Notes under the pieces: model-generated
What the model was told of the DNA's origin: nothing
The model's database searches: none
What the model saw: only the letters and a program-made list of their open reading frames with translations
Made by a program: the position numbers and the translations under genes
NCBI RefSeq assembly: GCF_016026235.1
Contig: NZ_CP065613.1
DNA: 64,000 bases
DNA from: Escherichia coli
GTDB taxonomy: Bacteria; Pseudomonadota; Gammaproteobacteria; Enterobacterales; Enterobacteriaceae
Direction: 5' to 3' (one strand)
In this document: positions 3,066-62,136 of the stretch, piece after piece
Position numbering within the stretch: position 1 is the stretch's first letter
Layout of the letters: each line of letters opens with the position of its first letter

Positions 3066-3845
3066 TCAGATAAAGTGCTTACGCAACCGTTGAGAGAGGA
3101 AATCCAGCAGGCTGACCGTGACGATAATCAGCACCATCAGGGCGCAGGTTTGCTGGAACTGGAAACCGCGAATCGCTTCCCACAGGGTGACGCCGATCCC
3201 GCCTGCACCGACCATGCCGACGACGGTCGCCGAGCGGACGTTGGATTCGAAGCGATAGAGGGAGTAGGAGATCAGCAGCGGCATCACCTGTGGCAGCACG
3301 CCGTAGAGGATCTCTTCCAGCTTGTTAGCACCGGTGGCGCGAATACCTTCCACCGGGCCGGGTTCGATCGCTTCCACCGCTTCAGAAAGCAGCTTGGAGA
3401 GCACGCCGGTGGTGTGGATAAACAGCGCCAGCACGCCAGCGAACGGGCCGAGGCCGACGGCGACCACGAACAGCATGGCGAAGACCATTTCGTTAATGGC
3501 GCGGCAGGCGTCCATCAGGCGGCGAACGGGCTGGTAAACCCACCACGGCACCAGGTTTTCGGCGCTCATCAGGCCGAAGGGGATGGAGAGAACCACCGCC
3601 AGCGCGGTGCCCCAGACGGCGATTTGCAGCGTGACGGCCATTTCGGTGAGGTAATCCTGCCACTGGCTGAAATCGGGCGGGAAGAAGTCGGCGGCGAATG
3701 TCGCCATGTTGCCGCCGTCTTTAATCAGCGTGAGCGGGGCCATTTCCGCGCCCTGCCACGAGACGACCAACACGGCGAGAACAACGGCCCAGCTCAGAAG
3801 CGAGAACCAGCTGCGCTTGGGTGGGGCGATGGTGATGGTTTGCAT
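3066..3845 (-). CDS. phnE: phosphonate ABC transporter permease, uninterrupted reading frame
   Basis: Continuous ORF 3066..3908; probable start [10 protein letters not shown]; hydrophobic membrane protein; no internal stop or frameshift. Confidence 0.85.
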
Positions 3846-7350: not shown

Positions 7351-9579
7351 ATGTACACACAGACCCTGTATGAGTTAAGTCAGGAGGCTGAACGCCTGTT
7401 ACAGCTTTCTCGCCAACAGTTGCAGTTACTGGAAAAAATGCCTCTCTCTGTACCCAGAGACGATGCGCCACAACGGGCTTTACCCTGGAGTCAGCCTAAT
7501 ATCGCCGAACGTCACGCGATGCTGAATAATGAGTTGCGTAAAATTTCCCGACTGGAAATGGTGCTGGCGATTGTCGGTACCATGAAAGCAGGGAAATCAA
7601 CCACCATTAATGCCATTGTTGGTACGGAGGTACTGCCTAATCGCAATCGCCCAATGACTGCGCTGCCGACGCTTATTCGCCATACACCCGGGCAAAAAGA
7701 ACCGGTACTGCATTTTTCACATGTCGCGCCAATCGATTGTTTAATTCAAAAATTACAACAGCGCCTGCGTGATTGCGATATTAAGCATCTGACCGATGTG
7801 CTGGAAATAGATAAAGATATGCGTGCGCTTATGCAGCGGATCGAAAATGGCGTCGCTTTCGAAAAATATTATCTGGGTGCCCAGCCTATTTTTCATTGTC
7901 TGAAAAGTTTGAATGATTTAGTGCGACTGGCGAAGGCGCTGGACGTCGATTTTCCTTTTTCTGCTTACGCCGCCATTGAGCATATTCCCGTGATTGAAGT
8001 GGAGTTTGTCCATCTGGCGGGGCTGGAGAGTTATCCCGGTCAGTTGACGTTACTGGATACCCCCGGGCCAAATGAAGCCGGGCAACCGCATCTGCAAAAA
8101 ATGCTTAACCAGCAGCTGGCTCGCGCCTCGGCGGTACTGGCGGTGCTGGATTATACGCAACTGAAATCGATCTCCGATGAAGAGGTCCGTGAGGCGATTT
8201 TGGCGGTGGGGCAATCGGTGCCGCTGTATGTGCTGGTCAATAAGTTCGATCAACAGGATCGTAACAGTGACGACGCCGACCAGGTGCGGGCACTGATTTC
8301 CGGGACGCTGATGAAAGGCTGTATTACGCCACAGCAGATATTTCCGGTGTCGTCGATGTGGGGCTACCTGGCAAATCGGGCGCGCCATGAGTTAGCCAAC
8401 AACGGTAAGTTACCACCGCCAGAGCAACAACGCTGGGTGGAAGATTTTGCCCATGCCGCGCTCGGCAGGCGCTGGCGTCATGCCGATCTGGCGGACCTCG
8501 AACATATTCGTCATGCTGCCGATCAGTTGTGGGAAGATTCGCTGTTCGCCCAGCCAATTCAGATGTTGCTTCATGCCGCTTACGCTAACGCCTCGTTGTA
8601 TGCTCTGCGATCTGCCGCGCATAAACTGTTGAATTACGCGCAGCAGGCGCGGGAATACCTGGATTTTCGTGCGCACGGGTTAAACGTCGCTTGTGAACAA
8701 TTGCGGCAAAATATCCACCAGATCGAAGAAAGTTTGCAGCTATTGCAACTCAATCAGGCGCAGGTGAGCGGCGAGATTAAACATGAAATCGAGCTGGCCC
8801 TGACCTCCGCCAACCACTTTCTGCGTCAACAGCAAGATGCGCTGAAGGTGCAGTTAGCCGCCTTGTTTCAGGATGATTCGGAGCCGTTAAGCGAGATGCG
8901 TACCCACTGTGAGACACTGTTACAGACGGCGCAGAACACCATCAGTCGCGACTTTACGCTGCGTTTTGCCGAGCTGGAATCCACCCTTTGCCGAGTGTTA
9001 ACCGATGTTATTCGCCCCATTGAGCAACAAGTCAAAATGGAATTGAGCGAGTCAGGGTTTCGTCCTGGGTTTCATTTTCCTGTTTTTCACGGAGTAGTTC
9101 CCCACGTCAACACTCGCCAGCTGTTCAGTGAAGTCATTTCGCGCCAGGAGGCAACGGACGAGCAGAGCACGCGTTTAGGCGTTGTGCGTGAGACTTTTTC
9201 GCGCTGGTTGAATCAGCCCGACTGGGGATGGGGAAATGAGAAATCCCCGACAGAAACGGTTGATTACAGTGTGTTGCAACGAGCATTAAGCGCAGAAGTC
9301 GATCTTTATTGCCAACAAATGGCTAAAGTTCTGGCAGAGCAGGTCGATGAATCTGTTACGGCAGGCATGAATACTTTTTTCGCTGAGTTCGCTTCATGTT
9401 TGACGGAATTACAGACGCGTTTACGCGAAAGCCTGGCTCTGCGTCAACAAAATGAATCGGTGGTCAGGCTGATGCAGCAGCAATTGCAGCAGACTGTGAT
9501 GACTCACGGCTGGATTTACACCGACGCCCAGCTGTTACGCGATGATATTCAAACACTTTTCACGGCAGAACGATATTGA
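7351..9579 (+). CDS. crfC: dynamin-like GTPase (CrfC/YjdA)
   Basis: 742 aa ORF; P-loop GTMKAGKSTTINAIVG; long coiled-coil C-terminal half. Confidence 0.88.
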   Translation: MYTQTLYELSQEAERLLQLSRQQLQLLEKMPLSVPRDDAPQRALPWSQPNIAERHAMLNNELRKISRLEMVLAIVGTMKAGKSTTINAIVGTEVLPNRNRPMTALPTLIRHTPGQKEPVLHFSHVAPIDCLIQKLQQRLRDCDIKHLTDVLEIDKDMRALMQRIENGVAFEKYYLGAQPIFHCLKSLNDLVRLAKALDVDFPFSAYAAIEHIPVIEVEFVHLAGLESYPGQLTLLDTPGPNEAGQPHLQKMLNQQLARASAVLAVLDYTQLKSISDEEVREAILAVGQSVPLYVLVNKFDQQDRNSDDADQVRALISGTLMKGCITPQQIFPVSSMWGYLANRARHELANNGKLPPPEQQRWVEDFAHAALGRRWRHADLADLEHIRHAADQLWEDSLFAQPIQMLLHAAYANASLYALRSAAHKLLNYAQQAREYLDFRAHGLNVACEQLRQNIHQIEESLQLLQLNQAQVSGEIKHEIELALTSANHFLRQQQDALKVQLAALFQDDSEPLSEMRTHCETLLQTAQNTISRDFTLRFAELESTLCRVLTDVIRPIEQQVKMELSESGFRPGFHFPVFHGVVPHVNTRQLFSEVISRQEATDEQSTRLGVVRETFSRWLNQPDWGWGNEKSPTETVDYSVLQRALSAEVDLYCQQMAKVLAEQVDESVTAGMNTFFAEFASCLTELQTRLRESLALRQQNESVVRLMQQQLQQTVMTHGWIYTDAQLLRDDIQTLFTAERY

Positions 9580-10442
9580 CCAAGACGTTACTGGACGGCC
9601 CCGGTCGCGTGCTGGAGTCGGTTTATCCCCGCTTTTTAGTGGATCTGGCGCAGGGCGATGATGCCCGCCTTCCACAAGCCCATCAGCAGCAGTTTCGTGA
9701 ACGACTGATGCAGGAACTTCTTTCGCGTGTGCAGCTTCAGACATGGACGAACGGCGGCATGTTAAATGCGCCGCTTAGCCTGCGACTGACAATGGTGGAA
9801 AAACTGGCGTCGATGCTGGATCCCGGTCATCTGGCGCTGACGCAGATCGCGCAGCATCTGGCGCTGCTGCAAAAAATGGATCACCGCCAGCACTCTGCTT
9901 TCCCGGAGCTCCCCCAGCAAATTGCCGCCTTGTATGAGTGGTTTTCAGCCCGTTGTCGCTGGAAGGAAAAGGCGTTAACGCAACGAGGCCTACTGGTGCA
10001 GGCAGGTGATCAGAGCGAGCAAATTTTTACCCGCTGGCGTGCTGGGGCGTATAACGCCTGGTCGTTGCCTGGGCGCTGTTTTATCGTTCTCGAAGAGTTG
10101 CGCTGGGGTGCATTTGGCGATGCCTGCCGTCTGGGAAGCCCGCAAGCGGTGGTGTTGTTGCTGGGTGATTTGCGCGAGAAAGCGACACAACATCTGGCAG
10201 AGAGTATCAATGCGGCACCGACCACGCGTCACTATTACCATCAGTGGTTTGCCTCTTCGGGAGGGGAGCATGCTGATTTTTTAAGTTGGCTGGGAAAGTG
10301 GTCCATGGCAGATAAACAGCCCGTTTGCTGGTCAGTGACCCAACGCTGGCAAACAGTCGCGCTGGGGATGCCACGACTCTGTTCAGCGCAGCGTTTGGTG
10401 GGGGCAATGGTCGAGGAAATCTTCTCTGTAAATTTGGCGTAA
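9576..10442 (+). CDS. yjcZ: YjcZ, partner protein of CrfC
   Basis: 288 aa ORF overlapping crfC stop by 4 nt (translationally coupled). Confidence 0.8.
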   Translation: MTKTLLDGPGRVLESVYPRFLVDLAQGDDARLPQAHQQQFRERLMQELLSRVQLQTWTNGGMLNAPLSLRLTMVEKLASMLDPGHLALTQIAQHLALLQKMDHRQHSAFPELPQQIAALYEWFSARCRWKEKALTQRGLLVQAGDQSEQIFTRWRAGAYNAWSLPGRCFIVLEELRWGAFGDACRLGSPQAVVLLLGDLREKATQHLAESINAAPTTRHYYHQWFASSGGEHADFLSWLGKWSMADKQPVCWSVTQRWQTVALGMPRLCSAQRLVGAMVEEIFSVNLA

Positions 10443-40601: not shown

Positions 40602-41510
40602 TTATTCTGAAGCGAGAAATTTGTCGAGATAAGGTACAACATAAGGAACAGAAGTCTGGAATATACCATTTTCAATCCAGTAAAGGGTGTTTGCCCCTGG
40701 GCGTAAATTAAAGGCGGTGAGATATGCATCAGCCGCTTCCCGGTTCATCCCCTTCATTTCATAAACCTTGCCAAGCAACACATAATTTAGCCAGGACATT
40801 TCAAGATCAATGCCAGTATTTATCGCCTGGTAAGACTCATCTGTTTTACCTTTTACCAGAGCACTGACCGCTTTTATTTGATATATAATGGACAGGTTGT
40901 TCAATTCCGGCAGTGTAACAATGTTGTCTATTTCTGTGTTCAGTGCTGCTAATTGTTTTTCATCTAAAGGGTGTTGAGAATGGCGCACGATATCAACTAA
41001 TGCTTTTTCTGCTCTCGCGTAGGTAAATTCTGGGGATGATTGAACAATCTCACCTAATAATTCACTGGCACGATTCAATGATTTGTCATCGCCATGCAGT
41101 AAATAATCATGAGCCTGATAAAAATTAGTTAATAACGCACCACGATGAGGCAAAATTTGCTGGAGCGTCTCCTGCATTCGTTGTGGCCACGGTTGGTTTA
41201 ACGCTTTTGATAAACTCTCCAGTAAATCATTTTGAATCGCCAGCTGATTACCGTTAGTGATGACATAACGTTTATCCAGCATGGTTGAACCATCTGCATT
41301 GTCTACCAATTTTATCGACATAAAGCATTGTTGAGCACGGTATTGGCGCTGATTAACAAAGGCAATAGATAATGTTTTACCGGAACTGCTCGGTTCATCA
41401 ATGTTGTAGTTGATTTTGTCATGCACCATAAAGGTGGAGAAGGTGTTAAGTGATGTCGCCACCAAATCACCCACGCCTATCGCGTAAGAGAGCTGATACG
41501 GGGAACTCCA

Positions 41511-42803
41511 CTGAGGGATCCCCAGAAAATTTAGTAAACCATTATCATATTGGTATACCGTTGCTGTAGAACTTTCAGCCCTGCGTCAAGTGACAGTGTG
41601 TTTAGTATGAGTGGAGAATGTCGAATCACATTCTCCGCCAGTTTTAATAACGAGATGACTCGCCTGTGCTTCACTGTATTTGCCTGATATTTATGATGTA
41701 TCCCTTTGTTTTCCAGGCTGAAACCGCTTAACCACATAATGATACTGGCTAATGTTGCGATCAGACTCAATACCGTGACCCGCCCGGATGAATGACTGGC
41801 ACCAAACCGTAGTCCAAATCCCCAGCGAGGATTTTTTCATCCCTGAAATTTTGCTCAATTTGCATTCTACGGCTGTATAATTTCATTACCTGTTTTGGCG
41901 AGAACTCAGTACTGTTTGTGAAAATAAACCATGGTGATTTCCCGGCAGTACGAGCTTTAGCCGTCACCGATGGTCTGGTTGCTCTTTCCTTCGAGCGTTT
42001 AAATCTACGACCTTTAGGCTTACTTTTATAAAGATAAAAATGCCCTTCATGTTGTGCATTTTTATCTCGACCCAGCAGGCCTTCACCTAAATAAATTGCT
42101 GTCGTTGATGCTTTTGTGCCTGAGTCCGACACCTTTTCCCAGCCATTACCAACATTGTAATAATGATTGCCCAGTACCCGGCAAATATAGGTCCAGCCAC
42201 GGGAGCGGAGCTGTTGGAACCATCGCCCCTGAAAACCGGCATCTGTAATAACAATGACATCAGTCCCGGGGGAAAAGCACTCAGCAAGCGATTCCAGAAA
42301 ACGCTCATGTACATCTGCATTCGCTGTCTGTGATGATGGAACGACACAACTCATCAACGGTAAAGAACGCCCGTCACATGCCAGGCTTGCCCGCAAAAGC
42401 TGAAAACGAGAGGCATGATAAGCACTCCAGTCAATGAGTATCACAACACGAGACATTCCCCGCGTAATCTTTTGGGTAATTCGCTGAAAAATGGTGGAAA
42501 CCTCATTTTGCAAATGTCGATTCCCCAACAGTCGATCCACCCGCTTTATTTTGTTTTTAACTGATGCCGTACCGGTTAAATGACGCCCGATACTGGTAAG
42601 TGTGAGGGAAGCGCCATTTATTACAGCATTAGTTGCGTCAATCAGTGATTTTTGACGGTAAAGATGCAAAGGGGCCAGTATGTTGTTAAGGAAATTTTGG
42701 CATAATGAACGTGCAGGCATAGTGGTGATCTCCTTGAAATTGTTAGCACAATCAATTAGATCACATCTCACTATGCCTGTCTTGTTTTCTGGGGATTCCT
42801 CAG
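41511..42803 (-). mobile_element. IS10-like insertion sequence (IS4 family), ~1293 bp, inserted in cadC
   Basis: Imperfect terminal inverted repeats CTGAGGGATCCCCAGAAAA (41511..) and revcomp CTGAGGAATCCCCAGAAAA (..42803); flanking direct repeat gggaactcc(a) at 41501..41510 and 42804..42813; encodes IS10-related transposase. Confidence 0.85.
41531..42720 (-). pseudogene. IS10-family DDE transposase, disrupted by a frameshift near 41797..41808
   Basis: ATG 42720 preceded by AAGGAGAT SD; motifs KRVDRLLGNRHL, ILIDWS, ITDAGF, YSRRMQIEQNFRDEK align with IS10 transposase; frame ends at 41767 and C-terminal homology (QANTVKHRRV...) continues in another frame (41531..41770). Confidence 0.75.
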
Positions 42804-44018
42804 GGGAACTCCAGCTGTTACAACTTTTATTTACCATATTAATGTCAATATCGCGTGGATTGAGCAAAATACGCGATTTGCTCATCGGAAGACGTGTATC
42901 AAGACTTGAAAACGCTACCAGTGCTACACAGATACCTAAGGACAACAGGAAAAAAAACCATACCCAAAAGGTAGTGAATCGTTTGCTTTTAACTGGGGAT
43001 TGTTCAGGTGGCGTTGCGGTGTTTTGAATGTTAAGGCTGTGGGAGGGAGAATCTGTGGCAGGAACCGCCTCTGGTATAGGGGGAGGCGAAGATAGCATTA
43101 TTTCCTCTCCCTCTTCTTCGCTGTACCAGATAACCGGCACCATTAATTTATAGCCGCGCTTTGGTACAGTAGCGATATAGACAGGACTATCTTCATCATT
43201 ATCTTTTAATGAATTACGTAGTTCTGAGATACTCTGCGTCACAACGTGATTGGTGACAATACTTCTCTTCCAGACATTATCGATAAGTTCATCCCTGCTA
43301 AGTACTTCGCCACTGTGTTGAGCAAAGAAAACCAGAAGATCGATTAATCTCGGCTCAAGGGTAAGTTGACGCCCATTGCGGCTAATTTGGTTTATGGACG
43401 GAGTAACAAGCCATTCGCCAACGCGAACTACAGGTTGTTGCATAATAGAAACTCATTCGAAAAGGGAATGATGCAATGATAATTGCCACAACCTATTTTT
43501 ACCATCTATAGATGGGTTTATTTACATATTATTGGTGAATGCAAGACGTTATTTTTACCAGCCATAAACTTCTTGATTACATGGTATTACGAAAGGATTT
43601 TACTGAGAACCAGAAGTAATATTCCTTACCATCAAAATTCATCATCTTTGCCAAAGAAAAATGTTCAGAAAATAATCCATGGAAAATTGTCCGGAGCGCT
43701 TACTATTTTAATGGATTGTTAGTCTTTGCATGAGCAAGGGGACTGATACATTTCTCTTTGTTCTCATTCAGAAAATCTCATCAGTCGCCGTTCAGACCGG
43801 TGTTGTGCTTTATGGATGCGTTACGCTCCTGATGACGTCATTTGACGTTCAACAGCATCACGGGGTCGCACGACATTTCACGTCAGTTAGTGCTATAGCT
43901 CAGGAACAAATTTTCCCGAATTGGGATATGCCCGCAAATTGCTGGTGATGTGGGGAGAATCTGGTTGAGTTCGGTAGAATTGATTTGGCGGCAGAACGCT
44001 TAAATCGTGGCGTCCTGA

Positions 44019-55743: not shown

Positions 55744-56004
55744 GTAGGTTCTCCCTAACCATTTCTCAATTAAATAATTAATTTTAATTTATAAGCCAGA
55801 TAAATGGGCTTGGTAGTAATAGTTGTTAAAATAACATAAATAGCCGTACTCACTCTATATAAACAGAAAAGAAAGGTTAATTATTGGTGTTAGTTATATA
55901 AAGAGTAACAACAGCAATACATATGAATAATTAAAGGTTATGCAACGTGCAAAGATTAAATTTTCCAGTTTAATGACAGGTTGCTGTACTTGCGTTTGTT
56001 GCTC

Positions 56005-56106
56005 TTGCCGGATGTGGCGTAAACGCCTTATCCGGCCTACAGTTCATTGCAAATCCATTCAATTTCAATGCACGATGTAGGCCTGATAAGCGTAGCGCAT
56101 CAGGCA
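56005..56106. repeat. REP elements upstream of yjeJ / downstream of epmB
   Basis: gccggatgtggcgtaaacgccttatccggcctac and gtaggcctgataagcgtagcgcatcaggc. Confidence 0.8.
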
Positions 56107-56137: not shown

Positions 56138-57166
56138 TTACTGCTGGCGTAGCTGGAGATCCAGCGGCGTTTTGCTGGGTTCGCCGCCGATTTCTCGCGC
56201 CAGTTTCGGCACCAGATAACCCGACACCAATGTCAGCAACTCACGCATAATCTGCCGTGCTTCGTCATCACTCACCATAAAATGCGCCGCGCCCTGTACT
56301 TTATCGAGCACATGCAGGTAATACGGCATCACGCCGGCATCGAACAACGCATTACTCAGGTTTGCCAACGTTTGTGCGTTATCGTTCACACCACGTAACA
56401 GAACGCTCTGGTTAAGCAGGGTGACACCGACACGGCGCAATTTAGCCATCGCCTGACGGAACGTTTCATCTACCTCATTGGCATGATTGATGTGATTCAC
56501 CAGCAAGATTTGCAGCGTAGAACGGGCAAAGCGTTCAACCAGCGCCTCGGTGATGCGTGCCGGGATCACAATCGGCAGACGACTGTGAATCCGCAGACGT
56601 TTGATATGCGGGATGGCTTCCAGTTGTGTGAGCAACCAGTCCAGCTCGTGATCTTTCGCCATCAGCGGATCGCCGCCGGAGAAAATCATCTCGTCCAGTT
56701 CCGGATGCGCAGCAACATACTCAAGTGCAGTTTGCCAGTTACGCTTGTTGCCCTGATTTTCGGCATAGGGGAAGTGACGACGGAAGCAATAGCGGCAATT
56801 TACCGCGCAGCCGCCTTTGACCAGCAAAAGCGCCCGGTTGTGGTATTTATGCAACAAACCAGGCACTACGCTGTGCTGTTCTTCCAGTGGGTCGGTGGAG
56901 AATCCGGGTGCGACGACAAACTCATCTTGCGAGGTAAGTACCTGACGCAAAAGAGGATCGCCCGGATTGCCTTTCTCCATTCGATCGATAAATGAGCGGG
57001 GCACACGCAGGGCAAACAGCTTTTTGGCGCTGCGTCCGGCCAACAGTTTTTCGTCCGCGTCTATATTCAAAAGACGCAGAAGTTCATCAGGATCGGTCAC
57101 AACATCGGCAAGTTGCGTTAACCAATCTTCTCTGGATGGGGTATTTAGGGTTACAATATGCGCCAT
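56138..57166 (-). CDS. epmB: EF-P beta-lysylation lysine 2,3-aminomutase
   Basis: 342 aa; radical-SAM CxxxCxxC (CAVNCRYCFRR). Confidence 0.92.
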   Translation of the reverse strand: MAHIVTLNTPSREDWLTQLADVVTDPDELLRLLNIDADEKLLAGRSAKKLFALRVPRSFIDRMEKGNPGDPLLRQVLTSQDEFVVAPGFSTDPLEEQHSVVPGLLHKYHNRALLLVKGGCAVNCRYCFRRHFPYAENQGNKRNWQTALEYVAAHPELDEMIFSGGDPLMAKDHELDWLLTQLEAIPHIKRLRIHSRLPIVIPARITEALVERFARSTLQILLVNHINHANEVDETFRQAMAKLRRVGVTLLNQSVLLRGVNDNAQTLANLSNALFDAGVMPYYLHVLDKVQGAAHFMVSDDEARQIMRELLTLVSGYLVPKLAREIGGEPSKTPLDLQLRQQ

Positions 57167-57774: not shown

Positions 57775-57825
57775 TGCGGTTATGGTGCGGCCTGCAGGCT
57801 GCACCATCACTTATTCAGGTCAGAG

Positions 57826-57951
57826 ATGATGAAACGCCTTATCGTTCTTGTTTTGCTTGCCAGCACGCTGCTCACGGGCTGTAACACCGCTCGCGGTTTC
57901 GGCGAAGACATCAAACATCTCGGCAACTCCATCTCTCGCGCTGCCAGCTAA
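57826..57951 (+). CDS. ecnA: entericidin A small lipoprotein (41 aa)
   Basis: [41 protein letters not shown]; lipobox LTGC; below ORF-track size cutoff. Confidence 0.8.
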
Positions 57952-58061
57952 TTTTTCTTCTCTTCCGAAAAATCATCAGATTTCCGTCATTTTTGGCGAT
58001 GTTGTCTATTATTAATTTGCTATAGGCAAACATAAATAACATTACCTAAAAGGAAGACGTT

Positions 58062-58208
58062 ATGGTGAAGAAGACAATTGCAGCGATCTTTTCTGTTCTG
58101 GTGCTTTCAACAGTATTAACTGCCTGCAACACCACGCGTGGCGTTGGTGAAGACATTTCTGATGGCGGTAACGCGATTTCTGGTGCAGCAACGAAAGCGC
58201 AGCAATAA
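58062..58208 (+). CDS. ecnB: entericidin B small lipoprotein (48 aa)
   Basis: [48 protein letters not shown]; paralog of ecnA. Confidence 0.8.
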
Positions 58209-58244
58209 GCAATATGATCCTACCCACGTAATATGGACACAGGC

Positions 58245-59111
58245 CTAAGCGAGGTTCTGGTTTTCAAATTGTTCCGGACTGAGGCCGCCACACCAACTGT
58301 GCCGCCGCCACCGATTGTAATCACATTCGATATAATTAAACACCGTTGCCCGCATTATTTCCCAGCTGATAAAGTGTTCTCCATGGATACATTCCACTTT
58401 CAGCGAATGAAAGAAGCTTTCCACGCAGGCATTATCGTAGCAGCAACCTTTTGCGCTCATACTTCCACGCAGATTATGCCGCTTCAGTTGCGCCTGATAA
58501 TCTGCTGAACAGTACTGGCCTCCACGGTCCGTGTGAACGATAACGTTCCGGGGCCTCTTACGCCGCCACAGCGCCATCTGCAGGGCATCGCAGGCCAGTT
58601 GCGCCGTCATGCGTGGCGACATTGACCAGCCAATAACGGCACGTGACCACAGGTCAATGACCACTGCCAGATACAGCCAGCCTTCATCTGTACGTAAGTA
58701 CGTGATGTCTCCTGCCCACTTCTGGTTCGGGCCACTGGCGTAAAAATCCTGCTCCAACAGATTTTCTGACACAGGCAGGCCGTGTGCGCGGTAGCTGACC
58801 GGGCTGAACTTCCGGGAGGCATTTGCCCTCAGTCCCTGACGGCGCAGGCTTGCCGCCACGGTTTTTACGTTAAAGGGGTAACCCTGAGCACGCAGTTCAT
58901 CCGTCAGGCGTGGGGCACCGTAACGCTGTTTTGACCGGGTAAAAGCCGCGAGGACAACGCTGTCGCAGTGTTGGCGGAACTGCTGACGCGTGCTTATCCT
59001 TGTCCGCCGCTGACACCACGTATACCAGCCGCTGCGGGCCACCCGGAACACGCGGCACATTGCTTTGATGCTGAACTCAGCCTGATGTTTTTCAATAAAG
59101 ACATACTTCAT
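58245..59111 (-). CDS. insF: IS3 transposase OrfB (DDE integrase domain)
   Basis: 288 aa; [21 protein letters not shown]...; ATGA overlap with orfA stop. Confidence 0.9.
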
Positions 59112-59407
59112 TTCAGGCGCTTCGCGAAGTATGTCGCGGCCTTTTGGAGGATAGCCAGCTCTTCATCCCGTTCTGCCAGCTGGCGTTTGAGACGTGCAAT
59201 CTCGGTAGACATCTCCAGTTCACGTTCAGAAGACGTCTGCTGATTTTGCTGTTTACTGCGCCAGTTGTAGAGCTGTGATTCATACAGGCTGAGTTCACGG
59301 GCTGCGGCAGTAACACCGATGCGTTCAGCAAGCTTCAGGGCTTCACTGCGAAATTCAGGCGAATGCTGTTTACGGGGTTTTTTACTGGTTGATACTGTTT
59401 TTGTCAT
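59108..59407 (-). CDS. insE: IS3 transposase OrfA (HTH)
   Basis: Start [29 protein letters not shown]; ~99 aa. Confidence 0.88.
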
Positions 59408-59580
59408 GTGAGTCACCTCTGACTGAGAGTTTACTCACTTAGCCGCGTGTCCACTATTGCTGGGTAAGATCAATAACGGTACGACAGCTGTGTCGTGCCG
59501 TTTGTTTTCTCTGCGATAGTCACAAAGGTAATAGTTGAAATTCCCCTGCCACCTGGCAAAATATCCGTTCAACCATCAGC

Positions 59581-59630
59581 TTTGCAGGACGACCTGCAAA
59601 CGCGTCTTTTCACCGGGGACGGCCCCAATT
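59581..59630 (+). ncRNA. guanidine-II riboswitch (mini-ykkC) in gdx leader
   Basis: Two short hairpins with ACGR loops: gcaggACGAcctgc (59584..59597) and ggggACGGcccc (59615..59626), followed by SD GGAG and gdx ATG at 59645. Confidence 0.8.
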
Positions 59631-59644
59631 CTCCGGAGCCTGAT

Positions 59645-59962
59645 ATGTCCTGGATTATCTTAGTTATTGCTGGTCTGCTGGAAGTGGTATGGGCCGTTGG
59701 CCTGAAATATACCCACGGCTTTAGTCGTTTGACGCCGAGTGTTATTACTGTGACGGCGATGATTGTCAGTATGGCGCTACTTGCCTGGGCGATGAAATCG
59801 TTACCAGTAGGGACGGCTTATGCCGTGTGGACGGGTATTGGCGCAGTCGGCGCGGCCATCACCGGCATTGTACTGCTCGGTGAGTCCGCTAACCCGATGC
59901 GCCTGGCGAGTCTGGCGTTAATCGTATTGGGGATTATTGGTCTGAAACTCAGCACTCACTAA
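59645..59962 (+). CDS. gdx: SMR-family guanidinium exporter
   Basis: Start [22 protein letters not shown]; 105 aa, 4 TM; ORF-track upstream extension is probably not translated. Confidence 0.9.
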
Positions 59963-60492
59963 CTACCGGGCTGCTGTACCCAAATAAACTTACTGACATC
60001 AAACCCTTCCCGGGTCGCGACTGCCAGCATCTCCTGTTTCACTTCGTCAGAAATGGTTGGCGTGCGGGAGAGTATCCACAGGTAGTCGCGGTCCGGGCCG
60101 CAAACCAGCGCATGGCGGTATTCCCGATCAAGTGCAATGACGTTATAACCGCCATAGAAAGGACCAAAGAATGACACTTTCAGCGCAGCGCGAGTTGGTA
60201 CGCCGGTAAAGTACGCTTTCCCTTCACTCTGCTGCCACATTCCTCTGTCAGGGTTATAGCCTTTATTAATGACATTCAGGCCGCCGTCATCACGCAGGCT
60301 GTATGTTGCGGTGACTTTTTCCAGTCCACGTTCAAAGCGGTGATCAAAACGGGCAATCTCATACCAGGTACCGAGATAGCGTTTAGCGTCGAAATTATTC
60401 ACTACGGTCACGCCACGCGGCGGCGTAGGAGAACTGCAGGCAACGACCAGAAATGCAGCTGTCGCTGCGGCAACGAGAGGGAGCAGGCGCAT
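59959..60492 (-). CDS. blc: outer membrane lipocalin Blc
   Basis: 177 aa; lipobox VVACSS. Confidence 0.9.
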
Positions 60493-60580
60493 AAATGTTT
60501 CCTTACTGGTTTTTTTCTAAGTGTAGATGACAGCAAGGAAAAGCGGAGAAAAGGTCCGAAAATTCGGACCCGATGAAATT

Positions 60581-62136
<1,556 letters not shown>

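Follow-up and report, generated by a model that had tools for sequence, protein, structure and literature searches.

A complete copy of the insertion sequence IS3 lies in the 3' untranslated region (3' UTR) of ecnB, upstream of gdx (sugE), in a 64,000-nucleotide stretch of Escherichia coli DNA (contig NZ_CP065613.1; the whole stretch is called the window below). It is a simple IS3 insertion which leaves the gdx transcription unit intact. Its main effect would fall on ecnB, and the copy would serve as a substrate for rearrangement. The probability of this reading, taken as a whole, is put at about 0.85. Both the element and its behaviour are already known, whereas the site was previously unoccupied, and the insertion has probably not changed how gdx is regulated.

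The IS3 copy and its target site

The element and its flanking duplication comprise the following features.

58212-58214, no strand: left copy of the target-site duplication, ATA, 3 bp, read directly
58215-59472, minus strand: complete IS3, 1258 bp, with 99.6% nucleotide identity to K-12 IS3A over 1255 bp
58215-58254, minus strand: right inverted repeat (IRR), the terminus adjoining ecnB, equal to the left inverted repeat (IRL) at 28/40 positions, with ends TG...CA
59433-59472, minus strand: IRL, the terminus facing gdx, an exact match to the canonical IS3 IRL 39-mer
59407-59108, minus strand: orfA, 99 aa, identical to K-12 InsE
59111-58245, minus strand: orfB, 288 aa, with D135, D195, E231 and K238 intact
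59141-59145, minus strand: A-AAA-G slippery site for the -1 frameshift that yields OrfAB, IS positions 328-332
59473-59475, no strand: right copy of the target-site duplication, ATA, 3 bp, read directly

The first-pass annotation had described a full 1258-bp IS3 with intact orfA and orfB and a 3-bp ATA duplication, located 6 bp after the ecnB stop, about 110 bp upstream of the riboswitch and about 170 bp from the gdx ATG. This description was borne out. The element occupies 58215-59472 on the minus strand, and its reading frames are intact in the list of open reading frames, in the comparison with K-12 and by profile score. The ecnB stop codon (TAA, 58206-58208) is separated from IS3 by 6 bp (GCAATA), and the other end of the element is 108 bp from the start of the riboswitch (59581) and 172 bp from the gdx ATG (59645). 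The orientation was also read correctly, as IS3 is transcribed toward ecnAB, in antisense orientation to these genes.

On the minus strand the element opens with the canonical IS3 left end, TGATCTTACCCAGCAATAGTGGACACGCGGC. The IRL terminus at 59472 reads TGATCTTACCCAGC... and the IRR terminus at 58215 reads ...GGGTAGGATCA; both repeats begin with TGATC, and the two 40-bp ends agree at 28/40 positions. The IRL 39-mer occurs once in the window and had 0 matches in 100 shuffles, and a search with it found no second IS3 end within the window. The orfA and orfB frames overlap, with orfB in the -1 frame, and the slippery stretch (CCAAAAGGCC / CCAAAAGG) is located at IS position 326. A-AAA-G is the motif which we take to be the IS3 frameshift site of Sekine and Ohtsubo. 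The OrfB protein differs from K-12 InsF1 by four substitutions (284/288 residues identical) and scores 335.5 bits on the NCBIfam model transpos_IS3, an IS3-family transposase equivalog with a cut-off of 160. Its residues D135, D195, E231 and K238 have the DD(35)E spacing, with the lysine seven residues past the glutamate. Length, inverted repeats, frames, DDE triad and 3-bp duplication, all of the marks of IS3 membership that can be read from sequence, are thus present.

Compared with the IS3 copies of K-12 (IS3A-IS3E; insE/insF) this is the same element. It has the same length of 1258 bp and an identical OrfA, and the inverted repeats, the A-AAA-G frameshift site and the 3-bp duplication all agree. 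What differs is the site, as the ecnB 3' UTR is unoccupied in K-12 and in any of the 5425 other complete genomes, and an OrfB substitution, R250W, which is private to this copy. The substitution results from a T in place of C at window position 58364 (IS position 1109, OrfB codon 250) and lies 19 positions past the catalytic E231. Arginine is found at this codon in K-12 IS3A and in the copy of strain FDAARGOS_943, the close relative treated below, and IS position 1109 is the only nucleotide at which the window and FDAARGOS_943 copies differ. In an exact-protein look-up no record was found for either the W250 or the R250 form of OrfB. R250W may or may not impair the copy. With intact inverted repeats, orfA, orfB, frameshift site and triad, the element is complete and looks transposition-competent. 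Indirect evidence that this copy may be active comes from these intact parts and from the deletion in FDAARGOS_943, which begins at the IRL end. The FDAARGOS_943 copy is annotated in RefSeq as an IS3-like element with a "programmed frameshift".

The empty site was reconstructed by joining 58120-58214 to 59476-59650, which removes IS3 and one ATA and leaves 270 nt, and was compared with 5426 complete E. coli genomes. It is identical at 270/270 positions to strain XH990. In 5350 of the 5426 genomes, an alignment with a single ATA covers 80% or more of the reconstruction. A reconstruction with one ATA therefore fits the species-wide spacer, which means that the flanks are collinear and that the two ATA copies represent a genuine target-site duplication. 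Gene order is also conventional for E. coli: efp, ecnA and ecnB are followed by gdx (sugE), blc and ampC, with frd beyond. Comparison with reference genomes and re-inspection of the duplication had been proposed in the first-pass annotation. The insertion is absent from reference E. coli, and ATA stands on both sides of the element and once in the empty site, so a simple insertion stands.

A possible preference of the element for a target resembling its own inverted repeat was also considered. The target and the IRL have an 8-mer, CAGCAATA, in common; of 3000 sites drawn at random from the window, 6.8% gave a match that was as good or better. At P = 0.068 the likeness is not significant and the idea was dropped. 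About 75 of the 5426 genomes have no full-length ecnB-gdx spacer, and the number of matching places exceeds that of matching records by 71.

The divided ecnB-gdx spacer

The genes and signals on the two sides of the element are listed below.

58062-58208, plus strand: ecnB, entericidin B lipoprotein, 48 aa (NCBIfam NF007487, 121.9 bits, cut-off 94)
59475-59509, plus strand: ecnB intrinsic terminator, 12-bp stem and T-run, from a terminator scan, now 1261 bp from ecnB
59535-59562, plus strand: gdx (sugE) sigma-70 promoter, TTGAAA-16-CAAAAT with TG before the -10, from a promoter scan
59552-59556, plus strand: Dcm site CCTGG directly upstream of the -10, inside the gdx promoter
59570, plus strand: inferred gdx transcription start, mapped over from K-12 position 4376800
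59581-59627, plus strand: guanidine-II (mini-ykkC) riboswitch, two hairpins with loops ACGA and ACGG (Rfam RF01068)
59645-59962, plus strand: gdx/sugE, 105 aa, intact (NCBIfam NF008512, 193.5 bits, cut-off 126, profile positions 1-104/104)

The native ecnB-gdx spacer is 175 bp long and IS3 divides it 6/169, so that 97% of it remains joined to gdx. The element is located in the ecnB 3' UTR, past the stop codon and ahead of the foot of the terminator. The terminator hairpin (59475-59502) folds at -19.1 kcal/mol with z = -4.2 (RNA fold). By Term-seq, the primary ecnB 3' end was placed at K-12 position 4376736 (Adams 2021; PMC7815308). With ecnB ending at 4376699 in K-12, this position maps to 59506 in the window, inside the T-run. 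A GC-rich hairpin, a U-run and an RNA 3' end mapped in K-12, the marks of a Rho-independent terminator, are therefore all found here. In the window the T-run at 59503-59512 reads TGTTTTCTCT and in K-12 TGTTTTTTCT; one base differs, which slightly shortens the U-tract, and the same difference can be given as TTTTCTCT (window) versus TTTTTTCT (K-12).

The insertion cuts ecnB off from its own terminator. In the proposed course of events, IS3 would have transposed into the ecnB 3' UTR, 6 bp past the stop codon and at the foot of the terminator, with duplication of ATA. To reach the terminator, transcripts of ecnB would then have to extend for about 1.26 kb across IS3, in antisense to orfB and orfA, and IS3 transcripts exiting at the IRR would run antisense into ecnB. 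On this arrangement of signals, the main cis effect of IS3 would be on ecnB and not on gdx.

On the other side of the element, within the 169 bp retained with gdx, the ecnB terminator comes first and is followed by the gdx promoter, the transcription start and the riboswitch. The earlier statement that most of the native upstream DNA of gdx is cut off by the insertion found no support, as 169 of the 175 bp (97%) stay with the gene, promoter and transcription start included. The promoter TTGAAA-16-CAAAAT, in the spacer between ecnB and sugE, was listed as the constitutive RpoD promoter of sugE (Shimada 2014; PMC3946193), where constitutive means bound by the RpoD holoenzyme alone (PMC3946193). 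A Dcm site (CCWGG) near the sugE -10 was reported by Militello and colleagues (PMC4924334). A 3' end in the 5' UTR was placed at K-12 position 4376876, and the sugE transcription start 76 nt upstream of it (Adams 2021; PMC7815308). The gdx coding sequence starts at 4376875 in K-12; position 4376876 thus corresponds to 59646 in the window and the transcription start to 59570, 8 nt past the -10. Both the start and the terminator positions were mapped in K-12 and transferred to the window by coordinates. From the end of IS3 it is 63 bp to the -35 and 98 bp to the start site.

The riboswitch scores 49.3 bits on RF01068 with E = 8.9e-8, above the gathering score of 32. It has two hairpins with ACGR loops, and 17 nt lie between the end of the motif and the gdx ATG. 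The E. coli element has been reported to bind guanidinium and to control gdx in a ligand-dependent manner (PMC9300104, PMC7815308).

A different alteration of this locus was observed in strain UPEC129 (L004, 4973-5079), where ecnA and ecnB are absent and efp is followed by gdx after about 100 bp. Homology with the window resumes at 59572, just past the gdx -10, which indicates that the strain has lost the gdx promoter, the one that IS3 spares.

Distribution of the insertion and the adjacent deletion in FDAARGOS_943

The distribution of the insertion was examined with a query spanning both junctions (57800-59900) and a criterion of 80% coverage in one place. Among the 5426 complete E. coli genomes, none holds both junctions. 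The ecnB-IS3 junction was found in a single record of this set, FDAARGOS_943, which matches the query from its first position through the final base of IS3, with ampC following directly. A 40-mer across the left junction had 0 matches in a collection of species-representative genomes and 0 in a metagenome collection. A literature search found no published description of an IS3 at ecnB/sugE.

FDAARGOS_943 and the window differ by 33 substitutions and four 1-bp indels over the approximately 60 kb that they share (about 0.06% divergence), and the next closest genomes are only 99.2% identical. XH990 was considered as a close relative with an empty site. Its 270-bp spacer is identical to the reconstruction, but its flanks are only 98.8-99.1% identical; it is therefore not a near relative, which leaves FDAARGOS_943 as the only one in the collection. 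Since the junction is common to FDAARGOS_943, the IS3 copy was inherited in the lineage and is not a private new event. By this comparison the insertion predates the split between the window strain and FDAARGOS_943, and in the genomes searched it is restricted to a single small and IS-rich lineage of E. coli. The event had been called relatively recent in the first-pass annotation. This is true on the scale of the species, as the insertion is young where 0 of 5426 genomes hold both junctions; it is not true in the sense of an event private to the strain.

Direct alignment of the two strains revealed one further feature beside the element.

59474-60636, no strand: 1163-bp segment present in the window and deleted beside the same IS3 copy in FDAARGOS_943

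The two sequences are collinear to 59473 and again from 60637. Lost in FDAARGOS_943 are the right ATA, the ecnB terminator, the gdx promoter, the riboswitch, gdx and blc, together with the final 56 nt of ampC. In that strain (L001, 7636-8751) IS3 abuts ampC, and the last 56 nt of the gene are replaced by read-through into the IRL; RefSeq keeps the annotation of a 371-aa BlaEC beta-lactamase there. The IS3 copy would accordingly have served as a rearrangement substrate, with the insertion first and an adjacent deletion from the IRL end afterwards. We infer this order from the shared junction, which suggests that the deletion was seeded later by the inherited insertion. It could have been a transposase-driven adjacent deletion or, equally, homologous recombination with a second IS3 in ampC that has since been lost. 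Acting as a rearrangement substrate would be the more consequential role of this IS3 copy.

Insertion followed by adjacent deletion has been documented for IS150, an IS3-family element, in the long-term evolution experiment (PMC11708052). The two steps are the same here: the IS and its target-site duplication come first, and then DNA from one IS end is lost together with the duplication on that side. The evidence here differs in that it comes from a pair of natural isolates and not from a time series. In papers on ampC amplicons, ecnB/sugE is often found at the amplicon boundaries, and IS1 and IS3 copies elsewhere are the end points of duplications; an IS at the ecnB-gdx site is not described in those papers.

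Further differences between the two strains were observed along the window. The cadC gene (approximately 40602-43443, minus strand) is split by a 1289-bp IS4-like ISEc60 at 41514-42802 with an 11-bp duplication, GGGGAACTCCA. In FDAARGOS_943 cadC contains no IS and has two 1-bp deletions instead (window positions 41374 and 42950). As the defects differ between the two strains, the lesions look independent. Full-length ISEc60 is rare, with only 14 carriers among the 5426 genomes; CFSAN029787 and strains harbouring plasmids of about 290 kb belong to these, and in FDAARGOS_943 there are 38 places matching ISEc60. CFSAN029787 is presumably an enteroinvasive E. coli, a type of lineage in which cad is typically inactivated. 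Over the 64-kb stretch FDAARGOS_943 alone has two IS5-family copies and, in yjeH, an element of the IS66 family. Window positions 8058-9583 (about 1.5 kb) are missing from FDAARGOS_943, where the dynamin-family gene beside rdcB is annotated as truncated, and a 73-bp stretch in phnE (3449-3521) is missing as well, with phnE annotated as frameshifted in that strain. Against this IS-rich background, one more IS3 in a 3' UTR is unremarkable.

Elsewhere in the window, the Rfam family naRNA4 gave matches on both strands at 56001-56074 with 40.1 and 24.4 bits, below the gathering score of 59.5. These matches are in the yjeJ-epmB spacer, just downstream of epmB (56138-57166, minus strand), and the repeats look like palindromes of the REP/BIME type.

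Alternative readings and meaning of the insertion

Insertion sequences can alter the expression of neighbouring genes, and known examples of IS-mediated promoter activation include the outward -35 elements of IS1, IS2 and IS10 as well as IS5 at bgl. It had been suggested in the first-pass annotation that an IS3 end next to the riboswitch may change gdx promoter activity. The insertion would do so by removing upstream control DNA or by supplying promoter elements, and guanidine export would change as a result. Consistent with this, the IS3 end is close to the -35 and the riboswitch (63 and 108 bp, respectively), and all DNA upstream of about -98 is now IS3. The case also resembles IS-activated promoters in that the IS lies less than 200 bp upstream of the start of a gene. 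However, the core promoter, transcription start, riboswitch and coding sequence of gdx are all kept, and the promoter is of the class served by the RpoD holoenzyme alone (PMC3946193). Moreover, it is the IRL that faces gdx, and IS3 transcription leaves the IRL in the opposite direction, away from the gene. A promoter scan of IS3 (58215-59472) found no plus-strand promoter-like site, and a scan for terminators found no plus-strand terminator-like site within the element. The ecnB terminator (-19.1 kcal/mol), which stands between IS3 and the gdx promoter, should block any read-through. An IS-created or IS-activated promoter is therefore not what is found here: there is no outward promoter and the native one is retained, and with IRL transcription directed away and a strong terminator in between, the features needed for IS activation are not seen. 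As gdx keeps its promoter, start, riboswitch and coding sequence behind a terminator, a change in its promoter activity is unlikely, and its expression would be essentially unchanged. Effects may still arise from the loss of DNA beyond -98 relative to the transcription start, from supercoiling, or from a weak outward promoter below the threshold of the scan.

That the element is the scar of a larger rearrangement, produced by recombination of two IS3 copies or representing one end of a composite transposon, is hardly credible. FDAARGOS_943 does show that this copy is able to take part in a rearrangement. In the window, however, the 3-bp direct repeats match, taking out the IS together with one of them yields the spacer found species-wide, with 100% identity, the flanking gene order (efp-ecnAB and gdx-blc-ampC-frd) is standard, and no second IS3 end is present. 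Less far-fetched, and still improbable to a high degree, is selection of the insertion for its effect on entericidin, or as a step toward the loss of gdx, blc and ampC. With the ecnB terminator gone and IS3 transcription convergent, mRNA for the bacteriolytic lipoprotein EcnB would be lowered or destabilized. In favor of selection, IS3 falls precisely between the stop codon of ecnB and the terminator mapped in K-12, the insertion was kept through the split of two strains about 0.06% apart, and FDAARGOS_943 later lost gdx, blc and the tip of ampC. On the other hand, the insertion has not recurred, being found in one lineage only among 5426 genomes, and neither the coding sequence of ecnB nor the region upstream of it has been altered. 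The lineage is moreover IS-rich, with several strain-specific IS differences within 64 kb, which makes hitch-hiking or drift the simpler account. A broader version, rated slightly higher and still quite unlikely, would have the IS3 copy be non-neutral. In that version, with ecnB uncoupled from its terminator and transcription convergent, it retunes the entericidin toxin/antidote pair and predisposes the locus to loss or amplification of gdx-blc-ampC, with the deletion in the sister strain as one outcome of selected remodelling. If true, this would be an IS-driven, selected remodelling of the locus in a lineage resembling invasive E. coli.

The preferred reading remains a simple insertion beside an intact gdx unit. 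An ordinary, lineage-restricted IS3 of this kind amounts to a routine strain polymorphism and has little importance beyond strain typing. As an insertion polymorphism it is a clean marker of one small E. coli lineage. Together, the window and FDAARGOS_943 form a natural before/after pair for the IS-adjacent loss of gdx and blc and the truncation of ampC. The locus is best annotated as an intact gdx unit preceded by an IS3 in the 3' UTR of ecnB, rather than as a disrupted gdx promoter.
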